A stretch of 64,000 nucleotides of DNA from a phage, in assembly GCA_019338205.1 (NCBI GenBank), contig GCA_019338205.1_4761.1; one strand, 5' to 3'. Shown here piece by piece: positions 10,372-31,317 of this stretch (position 1 is its first letter; every line of letters starts with the position of its first letter). The notes below the pieces were generated by a model, which had not been told where the DNA came from, did no database searches, and was given only the letters and a program-made list of their open reading frames with translations. Made by a program: the position numbers and the translations under genes.

Positions 10372-10379
10372 TATTTATA
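10372..10379 (-). promoter_or_regulatory. T4-type late promoter TATAAATA for the 53-5-6-7-8 operon
   Basis: exact TATAAATA on minus strand about 33 nt upstream of gp53 ATG. Confidence 0.6.
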
Positions 10380-10394: not shown

Positions 10395-11090
10395 ATGGAC
10401 TATCAAAAACATTATGATCGATTAATTGAACGCGCAAAGCATAGAACGCTTGAAGGATATAAAGAAAAACATCATATTATTCCTCGTTGTATGGGAGGCG
10501 ATGATAGTCCAGAAAATATAGTTGAGTTAACGGGGTCTGAACATTTTGTTGCTCATCAACTTTTAGCAAAAATGCATCCAACACATCACGGAATTGTACA
10601 TGCGGCGAAAATATTGATGGGGTCTACCAACTATAACAATAAACAATTTGAGTGGGTAAGAAAACTTGCGGTCGAGACTTCAAGAAAATTTCATACAGGA
10701 AGAAAAAGATCCGAAGAGACTAGACGCAGAATATCAGAAGCAACTAAAGGAAAGAGAAAAGGAATTAAATTATCTGAGGAACATCGACAGAAATTATCTG
10801 CTTCATTAAAAGGTAGAGTGTTTACAGAAGAACATAAAAGAAATATTGCGTCAAGAGAAATTACACAAGAATGGAGAGACAACATCTCTAAAGCGGGTAA
10901 GGGTAGAAAGTTGTCACAAGAAAACGTAGAGAAATGGAAACGTATTCATAACACGCCAGAAATGAAACAAAAATATAGTGAATTGTCAAAGTCTCGTCCG
11001 TATTTCACCTGTCCTCATTGTGAAAAAACAGCCAATCAGGGAAATTATGTTAGATGGCATGGTGACAACTGCAAGAAGAAGGTGGTATAA
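10395..11090 (+). CDS. HNH homing endonuclease with NUMOD3-like repeats
   Basis: HHIIPRCMGGDDSPENIVELTGSEHFVAH HNH motif; repeated GRKRSEETRRRIS / GIKLSEEHRQKLS modules; C-terminal CxxC...CxxxxxC. Confidence 0.8.
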   Translation: MDYQKHYDRLIERAKHRTLEGYKEKHHIIPRCMGGDDSPENIVELTGSEHFVAHQLLAKMHPTHHGIVHAAKILMGSTNYNNKQFEWVRKLAVETSRKFHTGRKRSEETRRRISEATKGKRKGIKLSEEHRQKLSASLKGRVFTEEHKRNIASREITQEWRDNISKAGKGRKLSQENVEKWKRIHNTPEMKQKYSELSKSRPYFTCPHCEKTANQGNYVRWHGDNCKKKVV

Positions 11091-15957: not shown

Positions 15958-15986
15958 TTGACAACCATAAACGACTATAGCATAAT
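15958..15986 (+). promoter_or_regulatory. early promoter cassette (PeSL-type) TTGACA-N17-CATAAT
   Basis: TTGACA 15958-15963, CATAAT 15981-15986, conserved leader catcgaaacgaaacacac and ggagaatcaaaATG. Confidence 0.6.
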
Positions 15987-17357: not shown

Positions 17358-17536
17358 AATTATTTGCGTGGCTAATTATTTTAAATGTAATTGTTAAGAC
17401 CTTTCTCGCTGGTCTGATGATGGCGCATAGCACGAAACCAGAAGAAGCATTAACGTATTTTGTTGCTTATGTGCTGGGATTCTTGCTTACTGCGTGGATG
17501 TGTGATGAATATCGAAGAATTGAGGTAAAACCATGA
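17354..17536 (+). CDS. small two-helix membrane protein
   Basis: ATGA overlap; two hydrophobic segments. Confidence 0.4.
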   Translation: MKLFAWLIILNVIVKTFLAGLMMAHSTKPEEALTYFVAYVLGFLLTAWMCDEYRRIEVKP

Positions 17537-17751
17537 AAATGACTTTTTATATCTTAGCAAGTATCATGCTTGTGATCTCTTCTGCATTATTTGCATTTCT
17601 TACCGTTTGGGGGATCTGTACTGATGCGAAGCCGTGGGATATCGTAGAAAATACGGTTATGTTTATTATTAGTGTCATGTGTCTTTTTGATGCATTTAAC
17701 TCTATCAAGGAAGAAGACCAAAAACGTCGCGATAGAAAGCGATATAAATAA
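17533..17751 (+). CDS. small membrane protein with basic C-terminus
   Basis: ATGA overlap; hydrophobic N-terminal two thirds, KRRDRKRYK tail. Confidence 0.4.
   Translation: MKMTFYILASIMLVISSALFAFLTVWGICTDAKPWDIVENTVMFIISVMCLFDAFNSIKEEDQKRRDRKRYK
17743..17750 (+). promoter_or_regulatory. T4-type late promoter TATAAATA
   Basis: exact TATAAATA overlapping the stop of ORF 17533-17751, facing a 150-nt ORF-free structured segment. Confidence 0.4.
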
Positions 17752-17756
17752 TAGTG

Positions 17757-17927
17757 AACTAAAGACAGCGCGGTTAGAATGATTTGGACGTCACCTAGCC
17801 GCATTTATTGCAGCGTATGGGCGATCCGGTACGCTAAAGCATTCACTTGCTAGGCCGCTAGCAGGTTGGAGACAAGGAAGATTCGCTACCTTCCCTATAA
17901 GCCACTCTTCGGAGTGGCTTTTTTATT
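17757..17927 (+). ncRNA. candidate small structured RNA (late-promoter to terminator unit)
   Basis: no ORF above 25 codons; hairpins agcgta/tacgct, gctag/ctagc, ggaag/cttcc; ends at strong terminator. Confidence 0.25.
17901..17927 (+). terminator. intrinsic terminator
   Basis: gccactc-ttcg-gagtggc hairpin followed by TTTTTTATT. Confidence 0.75.
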
Positions 17928-17952
17928 GCCTAAAATTTTTTTAAAAAAGTTG

Positions 17953-17981
17953 TTGACACCAGATCCGGCCTATAGCATAAT
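17953..17981 (+). promoter_or_regulatory. early promoter cassette TTGACA-N17-CATAAT
   Basis: TTGACA 17953-17958, CATAAT 17976-17981, conserved leader. Confidence 0.6.
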
Positions 17982-18027
17982 ACACCCATCGAAACGAAAC
18001 ACACTTTCTTAAACGGAGAATCAAATT

Positions 18028-18213
18028 ATGGCACGTCGCATCACTAAAGCACTGAAAGCAGTAAGCAAAGAAAACGTAGTAGCTATTCTGGTAATCTGGG
18101 GTTATAACGAAGAATCCGCTAAACAGAAAGTTGAAGCAGGGTTTGAACTGGCAGTAAAAGCAATGCCGAATGATGACTCTGTAGGACTGGCAAACTATAT
18201 TGCATATTTCTGA
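18028..18213 (+). CDS. hypothetical early protein (61 aa)
   Basis: ORF track; ATG after cassette leader. Confidence 0.45.
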   Translation: MARRITKALKAVSKENVVAILVIWGYNEESAKQKVEAGFELAVKAMPNDDSVGLANYIAYF

Positions 18214-18221
18214 TAAAAGTG

Positions 18222-18250
18222 TTGACAGGGGAGGATAACTCCCCTACAAT
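18222..18250 (+). promoter_or_regulatory. early promoter cassette with spacer hairpin (TTGACA-ggggag..ctcccc-TACAAT)
   Basis: TTGACA 18222-18227, inverted repeat in spacer, TACAAT 18245-18250. Confidence 0.55.
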
Positions 18251-18279
18251 ACAACCATCAACGAAACGGGAGAATCAAA

Positions 18280-18507
18280 ATGATTAACTTTAAAGACGCA
18301 GCAAAAGAAATTATCGACTTTGAGCGCGAACTGTTTGAGATTGAACCGCAGATGGGTAAAATGGAACTGGCTAACCAGATCTGGGCTACTAGACTGAATC
18401 CGACTGACCGCTTAGAGATCATGAACCTTGTAGGTGCAAGCGACATGAAAGGTGGTGCGATGGCTAAACTCCGTAAATGCACCGCATACATTGCAGAACA
18501 ACTTTAA
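18280..18507 (+). CDS. hypothetical early protein (75 aa)
   Basis: ORF track; cassette leader. Confidence 0.45.
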   Translation: MINFKDAAKEIIDFERELFEIEPQMGKMELANQIWATRLNPTDRLEIMNLVGASDMKGGAMAKLRKCTAYIAEQL

Positions 18508-27913: not shown

Positions 27914-27921
27914 TATAAATA
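27914..27921 (+). promoter_or_regulatory. T4-type late promoter TATAAATA (inside loop of 9-bp inverted repeat)
   Basis: exact TATAAATA; flanked by ccccagatt 27906-27914 and aatctgggg 27936-27944; 33 nt upstream of ATG 27954. Confidence 0.45.
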
Positions 27922-28641: not shown

Positions 28642-28875
28642 TGTTAGTCACCGTGGGATGCATACCATAAGTAAAAGAATACTAGCATTAACACAACTAT
28701 TTGGCTTCCTCATACTTTCGCGTGTTCAATTACTGCCGAATCGGAAGACCCGTCTAAGACGAGGAAGGGTTATCATTGGAAAGGGATGGTGAATTGGTTA
28801 CTATGTTTAACTAGTTTAGCAAAGGTCGATTCAAACACTACTATACAAATGGACGTGAATAAAATATAATCAAAA

Positions 28876-28939: not shown

Positions 28940-28968
28940 GCACACATCGACAACAAAGGAGAATCAAA

Positions 28969-30498: not shown

Positions 30499-31278
30499 AT
30501 GGCAATATCTTCTGGATGGGTAGGATCATCTGCTGTGTCCGAGACTGGTCAACGGTGGATGAGCGCCGCAATGCAAGCTGTTCGCTTAGGTCGTCCGGCG
30601 TATATGTCGGCAATGGTCGGACGCTCTAAAGAGATTCATTATAGCATTGGCGCTAGTAATAGTTACAATAAAGATACGCTTATTAACTGGATGAAAGCAC
30701 AGTGATCTACTCCGGTAGTAATTACTATCACTGGTAATATTGTTTCCCAATCTACTGGCGTTCCTTGTCTTGACTTCCCTAGCTCGTTAACAAATGAATA
30801 TGTAACATTGATCATTAACTCCGGTGTTCATGTTTGGGGGCGTGGTGGTAATGGTGGCAATAACTCCGCTGGTGGTGCTGGTGGTAATGCAATAAATAAC
30901 GGAATTGGAACTAGATTACGTATTAACAACAATGGTGTTATCGCAGGCGGCGGTGGCGGTGGAGGTGGTGGGTATTATTCTCCTACGAAACCAATGAAAT
31001 TAACTTTTGGTGGTGGCGGCGGTCGTCCGTTTGGTGCTGCTGGTGGATCTGCCAACATGCAATCAGGCGCAACTGCTGGTACTATTTCCGCGCCAGGTAA
31101 AGGGTCTGTCAACGGTGTATATAATGGCGGTAACGGTGGTGATGCTGGCGGTGCTGGTGGTAAATGTAATATCCGTGGACAGGGATCGGAATATAATGGC
31201 GGTGCGGCTGGTAAGGCTGTTACTGGCAATGCCCCTCGCTGGGATAAAGTAGGCACGATCTACGGTGCTCGCGTGTAA
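30499..31278 (+). pseudogene. gp38-like glycine-rich tail fibre adhesin gene interrupted by in-frame TGA (pseudogene or readthrough)
   Basis: single 780-nt frame; stop TGA at 30703-30705; N-part GWVGSSAVSETGQRWM and Gly-rich C-part (GRGGNGG, GGGGGGGGG, FGGGGGRPFG) resemble T2-type gp38; downstream part has no ATG or SD. Confidence 0.5.
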
Positions 31279-31284
31279 TTTTAT

Positions 31285-31317
31285 GGGCTATCCTTCGGGA
31301 TAGCCTTTTTGTTTTTT
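31285..31317 (+). terminator. intrinsic terminator
   Basis: ggctatcc-ttcg-ggatagcc hairpin plus T-run. Confidence 0.75.

Follow-up and report, generated by a model that had tools for sequence, protein, structure and literature searches.

A conserved, structured segment at the end of the dmd operon is a candidate small RNA of Krischvirus phages

The window analysed here, a 64,000-nucleotide (nt) stretch of phage DNA (contig GCA_019338205.1_4761.1 of the GenBank assembly GCA_019338205.1), is by its sequence that of an RB49-like T4-type coliphage of the genus Krischvirus (RB49/GEC-3S/JSE-like), read as the reverse complement of the matching GenBank Krischvirus records. On its + strand, gp3, gp1, 57A and 57B are followed by a terminator and sigma-70 promoter unit, two small open reading frames (ORFs), dmd, five small membrane ORFs and then the structured element at 17756–17925 that is the subject of this report; another terminator/promoter unit and more small early ORFs come after it, so that the element sits between two early gene cassettes. 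The 601 nt around it show 98–99% identity to kaaroe, JSE, GEC-3S, RB49, Phi1 and 54 further records. The 72-aa small membrane ORF immediately upstream (17533–17751, + strand; hereafter ORF72), which corresponds to RB49p118 and GEC-3S BN201_0119 and belongs to phrog_15168, of unknown function, is the last cistron of an early operon that includes dmd, with its TAA stop codon at 17749–17751; this operon extends from sigma-70 promoters at 15958 and 16411 to the terminator at 17899–17924. Judged on the comparative evidence set out below, the element is most likely a previously unannotated, genus-restricted candidate phage small RNA.

The element is predicted to begin with a single-stranded 5′ leader, GAACUAAAGACAGC (17756–17769, + strand as for all features of the element), in which one site is polymorphic (17764: G, A or deleted), and to continue into five hairpins, the last of which is the terminator. 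H1 (17770–17802), the largest, consists of an 8-bp lower stem, an AA/C internal loop, a 4-bp upper stem and the loop UUGGAC, with pair probabilities of 0.9–1.0. H2 (agcgta/tacgct; 17812–17835) has a 7-bp lower stem that shows covariation, a 0–2-nt bulge and a hypervariable apex at 17819–17828, and H3 (gctag/ctagc; 17846–17865) has 8 bp, an invariant stem and the loop GCCG, in which a single change was seen (phage JEP8). A purine-rich single-stranded junction, UUGGAGACAA (17866–17875), which contains GGAG and carries one polymorphism (17873, C to U), separates H3 from H4 (ggaag/cttcc; 17876–17894), a 5-bp hairpin with the 9-nt loop AUUCGCUAC. The AU-rich sequence CUAUAA then precedes the intrinsic terminator (17899–17926), a G+C-rich 9-bp stem-loop (17899–17920; 5 of 9 pairs G–C) with the loop UUCG and, directly after it, a U run (U6, 17919–17924) and AU. 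A preliminary description of the window had counted at least three hairpins, naming H2, H3 and H4, and a strong terminator, gccactc-ttcg-gagtggc with TTTTTT (17899–17924); all of these are present, H1 had been missed, and the terminator was also called by a terminator scan and is annotated in GEC-3S and Makalu.

Immediately downstream, outside the RNA, lie an A/T-rich UP-like tract and a sigma-70 early promoter (17927–17981, + strand; TTGACA at 17953–17958, a 17-nt spacer and CATAAT at 17976–17981), which matches the consensus at 11 of 12 positions (17953–17981) and drives the next cassette (ORF 18028–18213). The terminator/promoter units found between cassettes are the PeSL (promoter-early stem-loop) cassettes of RB49 and phi1 (Arbiol et al. 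2010, PMC2839356), and the terminator hairpin at 17899–17920 together with the UP tract and sigma-70 promoter at 17927–17981 makes a typical PeSL, annotated in GEC-3S as terminator plus promoter. This assignment holds for the 3′ end of the element only: a PeSL is the terminator/promoter unit alone, whereas the approximately 145 nt of conserved hairpins upstream occur in no described PeSL. Five independent metagenomic contigs (L004, L034, L035, L036 and L037) stop about 150–250 nt 3′ of ORF72, at or just past the terminator and PeSL promoter, which fits assembler breaks at repeated PeSL promoter sequence.

Fold prediction, which the preliminary description had listed as a check, bore out a structured segment. 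The 185 nt fold with an energy of −63.9 kcal/mol, whereas dinucleotide shuffles gave −47.4 ± 4.2 (z = −3.99) and none of 200 did as well; the pair probabilities of the hairpins are 0.83–1.0. Two further helices were dropped: in kaaroe, AV108 and MIZ6 the 4-bp extension of H3 proposed by RNAalifold (columns 93–96 with 118–121) is disrupted, and several phages break the 3-bp base that energy models give to H2. Of the 11 terminators annotated over 50 kb of GEC-3S, 9 follow the upstream stop codon by 6–18 nt; here the distance is 151 nt, and the only other long gap (235 nt) comes after the rI operon. This second gap (window 28642–28875) shows no fold beyond chance (z = −1.5), and parts of it are absent from Phi1, SSG23 and JK32; rather than a conserved RNA, it probably represents a plastic spacer or a small gene that annotation has missed. 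It lies 3′ of the late-promoter-driven rI/rI.-1 operon (late-promoter motif TATAAATA at 27914) and holds an unannotated hydrophobic 44-aa ATG ORF (28658–28792).

Full-length copies of the element were found in 59 of 59 GenBank Krischvirus records, none of which annotates an RNA there, and additional copies in 11 metagenomic contigs (IMG/VR, JGI, ENA, Logan); no copies beyond Krischvirus-like sequences appeared in the searches made. The comparisons took in more divergent relatives from IMG/VR (L004/L006), from metagenomes (L018, L021) and from ORF72 homologues at 82–92% identity (L033–L039). Conservation in relatives, the absence of which had been put forward as grounds for rejecting the element, proved to be higher than in the flanking genes. 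Over 17842–17926, 46 of the 59 GenBank records are 100% identical to the window and most others are one base off; in a 2.3 kb alignment of 11 genomes this 85-nt stretch contains no variable sites, versus 11–28% in flanking ORFs, and the most conserved neighbour, ORF117 (18028–18213), has 4.8%. Among 26 distinct sequences, nucleotide diversity (π) was 0.024 for the RNA without the H2 apex, approximately 6.7-fold lower than at the third-codon positions of ORF72 (0.159; 0.047 at first and second positions). Because this sample was enriched on purpose for RNA variants, and is therefore biased towards records that differ in the RNA, the true contrast between RNA and gene is larger than the measured one.

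Homology outside the genus was sought in several ways. A 'distant' blastn search of 50,697 phage records returned only Krischvirus and terminator-only matches, E. coli genomes yielded no homologues and only matches to a common terminator hairpin, and exact 19–24-mers searched against IMG/VR, JGI metagenomes and GTDB genomes hit only Krischvirus-like contigs and random sequences. A loop/junction pattern with free stems likewise gave random matches only, one of them inside an HNH gene. Of the flanking proteins, used to search by synteny, ORF72 had homologues only at 82% identity or more in a set of 5.8 billion proteins, and ORF117 also occurs in T1-like phages, where it belongs to a different cassette. 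The covariance model R1 found no paralogue of the element in the window or the whole RB49 genome. Its only secondary match, at 31180–31313 (22.6 bits), is a false positive, formed by the 3′ end of a Gly-rich adhesin-like gene (ORF 30808–31278, gp38 in the RB49 annotation) and the terminator GGGCTATCCTTCGGGATAGCC, and shows how much of the R1 score stems from the terminator.

The relatives also allowed the predicted structure to be examined pair by pair. Each substitution in a proposed stem preserves pairing on the + strand, and no stem is disrupted. In a formal covariation count over 23 sequences and 1,008 pair cells, standard pairs occupied 99.5% of the cells versus 27–47% when the 3′ partners were slid by 1–3 columns, and the covariation score was reached by 1 of 500 shuffles. 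In the lower stem of H2, A–U changes to G·U (kaaroe, L004, L037), and pair 62:85 goes from G–C to G·U (L033/L034) and on to A–U (L004, L037); H2 also shows G–C to G·U in UPWr_E1, and its upper stem occurs with G·U, A–U and G–C pairs. H1 changes from U–A to U·G in phage Brandy and H4 from A–U to G·U in L033/L034. Besides pair 62:85, with its G–C, G·U and A–U states, the six other changes are A–U to G·U or G–C to G·U. The H1 loop carries one change (L033), the terminator loop is altered in L039 with its stem intact, and all non-stem changes fall in loops or junctions (17764, 17789, 17810, 17838, 17839, 17844, 17845, 17854, 17873 and 17895). The apex of H2 accommodates 0–2 extra nt, yet a 3-bp stem and a tetraloop (GCGA, GUGA, UUAA, UUGA or GUAA) are always kept. 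In FL15 (L022), the terminator loop at 17908–17911 is changed from TTCG to its reverse complement CGAA with the stem unchanged, a clean hairpin-loop inversion.

At the 5′ boundary, an exact match to the T4-type late-promoter (gp55) −10 element, TATAAATA (17743–17750, + strand), overlaps the Tyr-Lys-stop codons TAT AAA TAA of ORF72, as the preliminary description had reported for the stop of the last small membrane ORF. The T4 rule, with the motif at −13 to −6, predicts a start at about 17756 and an RNA of about 170 nt. The number of copies is not enriched, either in the window (3 versus 5.8 expected) or in the whole RB49 genome (14 versus 14.0 ± 3.1). As to their placement, none of the 14 RB49 copies lies inside a same-strand ORF, 12 of the 14 stand 20–46 nt upstream of an ORF that starts with ATG and is 100 aa or longer, and in the window the two remaining copies lie ahead of gp53 and rI; the RB49 genome is 94.5% coding (PMC1524935). 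The copy at 17743 overlaps only the last two codons and the stop of ORF72, a gene-end position like that of the genome's other copies, and is intact in 25 of 26 aligned relatives. Since the motif is apparently tolerated only at promoter-like positions, the copy at 17743 is probably an active late promoter; this genome-wide placement makes the earlier idea of a late promoter pointing into the segment a likely one.

The only other orphan copy of TATAAATA was noticed in RB49 (OZ035808.1; L041:10546–10920), just 3′ of the terminator of the major capsid gene (gp23). It is followed by about 370 nt with 45–46-aa ORFs only, before a 50-aa ORF with a strong Shine–Dalgarno (SD) sequence, and the region matches neither an Rfam family nor model R1; it could hold a second non-coding RNA made late, or else a long leader.

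Our interpretation is that 17756–17925 (+) is the gene of a structured, non-coding RNA, about 170 nt long, which selection maintains and which is specific to Krischvirus and of the trans-acting small RNA (sRNA) type, a proposal that we consider about evenly balanced between true and false. Two routes of synthesis are envisaged: early in infection the upstream sigma-70 promoters would yield the RNA as the 3′-terminal part of the dmd/small-membrane-protein operon transcript; late in infection the gp55-type promoter TATAAATA, overlapping the ORF72 stop, would produce it as a separate, discrete transcript, and both transcripts would end at one terminator. As the operon from 15958 and 16411 runs to this terminator, the element is also the 3′ untranslated region (UTR) of the early transcripts. 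The two forms are predicted to fold differently. The late form (17757–17926) folds as H1–H4 plus the terminator, with a probability of 0.85 for H4, whereas in the early read-through context a long-range helix (17752–17760 with 17879–17888) replaces H4, whose probability falls to 0.09. H4 and the long-range helix are mutually exclusive in these models, and the helix would be possible only in the longer early transcript, the late form keeping H4. In the proposed mode of action, a stable trans-acting sRNA shares its terminator with the upstream mRNA, and its invariant single-stranded junctions and loops would serve protein binding or RNA pairing; that these loops and junctions hardly vary suggests that a protein or an RNA recognises their sequence. 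The terminator hairpin, U tail and AU-rich stretch could form a stabilising or chaperone-binding 3′ module. Such modules of Hfq- or ProQ-type sRNAs comprise a terminator hairpin with a U tail of at least six and an A/U-rich single-stranded stretch before it; the order CUAUAA, hairpin, UUUUUU has this layout, which speaks for compatibility only.

Several observations weigh against this proposal. A published scan with a 43-nt hidden Markov model, which gave 17 RB49 late promoters (Nolan et al. 2006), includes no site near RB49 58890, the nearest being 48756 and 64518. In one metagenomic relative (L018; MAVA01000028.1), TATAAATA and the ORF72 stop are lost to a 14-nt deletion (ATATAAATAATAGT), while the structured part downstream matches the window at every base. 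An insertion of 2 nt lies nearby, about 20 nt farther upstream, so that the contig is either a natural promoterless variant or the product of an assembly error. The covariance analysis against related phages that had been recommended at the outset was favourable in that all stem changes pair and 1 of 500 shuffles reached the score, but a double compensatory change occurs at one pair only and the stems of H3 and the terminator never vary, so that covariation support for the structure is real but thin; over the element, identity among known relatives nowhere falls below 93%. Exact complementarity to phage sequences was not above chance (10–11-mers only; 18 seen versus approximately 21 expected), duplex energies against 323 translation-initiation regions were no better than those of shuffled RNA, and a literature search found no RNA-seq or Northern data for any Krischvirus. 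Low diversity could partly be local history, as ORF117 too varies at only 4.8% of its sites, and identity between the window and L006 is a mosaic in which some coding blocks are 95–99% identical, so that local recombination history could contribute to the conservation. Finally, a trans role cannot be separated by computation from a role purely as a cis-acting 3′ UTR.

The last of these is the main rival explanation, which we regard as appreciably less probable than the sRNA: the segment would be a purely cis-acting 3′ UTR of the early operon, acting as a 3′ exonuclease barrier, a processing site or a termination insulator, with TATAAATA incidental or minor. It draws on the fact that transcripts from 15958 and 16411 must end with this segment, on the read-through helix that ties the end of ORF72 to the H4 region, on the retention of the structure without TATAAATA in L018, and on the failure to find a trans target among phage sequences. 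Yet the nine other operon ends with a short gap do without such a UTR, a stabiliser requires stems and not near-invariant loops and junctions, and TATAAATA stands exactly where a dedicated promoter would, in a genome whose other copies of the motif occur only at promoter-like positions.

The constancy of the element could also be read as that of a non-functional leftover, a decayed gene or spacer carried with the PeSL cassette and recently spread by recombination. Recombination is known to shuffle PeSL-flanked cassettes in RB49 and phi1 (PMC2839356), and both the mosaic identity between the window and L006 and the uniformity of the neighbouring ORF117 would agree with this account. We nevertheless find it improbable. 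A recent sweep would leave uniform identity, but the H2 apex (17819–17828) is a variation hotspot with at least eight haplotypes inside an invariant frame, a pattern in these alignments that a recent sweep does not explain. Moreover, a strong fold is unexpected for a decayed gene, the stem changes all preserve pairing, and the element is complete in every GenBank record, whereas the other long gap (28642–28875) is junk-like.

The nature of the stem changes bears on the strand and on the molecule concerned. All of them are A to G or C to U opposite U or G; since they would produce A·C mismatches on the − strand, they favour an RNA read from the + strand over an antisense RNA or a cruciform in the DNA. 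An element acting at the DNA level, such as a replication origin, a recombination hotspot or a protein-binding site whose palindromes work as double-stranded or cruciform DNA, would suit the several perfect palindromes (for example H3) and the location at a cassette boundary, but we judge it very improbable, as G·U pairs on the + strand do not keep cruciform symmetry and nothing ties the site to replication.

The segment contains only two ORFs, a 24-aa ATG ORF (17779–17853) and a 48-aa TTG ORF (17866–18012). The preliminary statement that no ORF exceeds about 25 codons therefore holds up to the terminator, whereas the 48-aa ORF extends through the terminator and the next promoter. Among relatives, the 24-aa ORF is broken by the 0/1/2-nt indels in the H2 apex and the 48-aa ORF by 1-nt indels in T and A runs, and the substitution pattern has no third-position periodicity; by these comparisons, the element is shown to encode no conserved peptide. 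A missed small protein gene is thus scarcely credible: both ORFs are mechanically present and Aragogtheria, FL15 and UPWr_E1 annotate a coding sequence (CDS) here, but 1- and 2-nt length differences shift both frames among close relatives. CDSs annotated through, or antisense to, the terminator and sigma-70 promoter (17866–18012 and 17930–18024) occur in Aragogtheria, FL15, UPWr_E1, SSG23 and FL20 (loci L008, L009, L011, L012 and L022), and the frame-shifting indels among relatives mark these calls as spurious.

We compared the element with known RNAs. Rfam 15 gave no matches at gathering thresholds over the whole window; below threshold, the strongest scores at 17400–18300 were 23.9 bits for EF3314_EF3315 (100 needed) and 22.8 bits for RNAI (47 needed), weak matches that reflect a hairpin-plus-terminator layout common to those models. 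ARAGORN found no tRNA or transfer-messenger RNA in the window, in keeping with the earlier remark that cloverleaf features are missing, and RB49 has no tRNA genes (PMC1524935). The closest functional analogues are RNAC and RNAD of T4 (species 1 and 2 RNAs; NC_000866 70908–71171), small stable RNAs of unknown function that accumulate late (PMC9697503; PMC3014915). Like the element, they are short, structured and non-coding (119–139 nt versus about 170 nt here), and they too lie in a T4-type phage in a non-essential region a few kilobases downstream of genes 1, 57A and 57B. The element is, however, no member of that family. It has no sequence or structure similarity to RNAC and RNAD (R1 found no match in T4 66000–76000 at E values up to 10), and it has its own promoter motif and intrinsic terminator. 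RNAC is cut out of a tRNA precursor and ends in a tRNA-like T arm and acceptor stem, whereas the Krischvirus element has no T arm, tRNA features or neighbouring tRNA genes.

A second comparison is with bacterial sRNAs such as DapZ and MicL, each of which is transcribed from a separate promoter, located within an upstream gene or at its end, and shares a terminator with the mRNA. Here, too, the promoter motif overlaps the end of the upstream CDS, the body of the RNA is the 3′ UTR, and a single terminator, with its U tail after an AU-rich stretch, is shared with the mRNA, the activity of the promoter being inferred. The element differs from this type in that the internal promoter would be a phage late (gp55) promoter, placing mRNA and sRNA in different phases of infection, and in being longer and more structured than most such sRNAs.

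Three other identities were considered and rejected. The junction GGAGACAAGGA fits the strong-site consensus of the endoribonuclease RegB, GGAGRAYARAA, at only 8 of 11 positions; by inspection, H4 and H1 do not mimic a T-loop or anticodon, their loops being 9 and 6 nt with no equivalent of U54–A58; and a programmed frameshift or read-through signal after the ORF72 stop lacks a slippery site, while indels at 17764 and in L018 are tolerated. Elsewhere in the window, the 5′ UTRs of early genes driven by PeSL (18013–18023; similar at 18268–18278 and 28957–28967) share the SD region GGAGAAUCAAA, which matches the RegB cleavage consensus at 10 of 11 positions. The window also encodes a RegB homologue (GEC-3S BN201_0095), which makes these early mRNAs likely RegB targets. 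Furthermore, a 231-aa ORF at 10395–11090 that divergently adjoins the gp53 late promoter (TATAAATA at 10372–10379, − strand) may encode a homing endonuclease, to judge by its HNH motif and repeated 'GRK.SEE.R..IS'-type modules.

A bolder version of the sRNA proposal, to us a long shot, is that the RNA is a late effector of a kind not described for T4-type phages, either a decoy against a host RNA-targeting defence or a regulator of the early-to-late switch. The tetraloop apex of H2 would then be a specificity determinant under diversifying selection, and the early and late forms would have different activities; the element lies in the same operon as dmd, the anti-RnlA/LsoA gene.

For the annotation of Krischvirus, a genus widely isolated for phage therapy, the analysis corrects several records with spurious CDSs across the terminator and promoter. 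For experiment, the putative promoter can be silenced by changing TAT AAA TAA to TAC AAG TAA, which leaves the ORF72 protein unaltered, so that the early and late routes of synthesis would be genetically separable. A 2010 review of post-transcriptional control in T4 stated that this phage had yielded no functionally characterised small regulatory RNA acting in trans, and suggested that the genomes of T4-related phages might point to sRNA candidates (PMC3014915). The element described here is a testable candidate of this kind, present in single copy with defined ends in every sequenced Krischvirus and unannotated in all 59 GenBank records.

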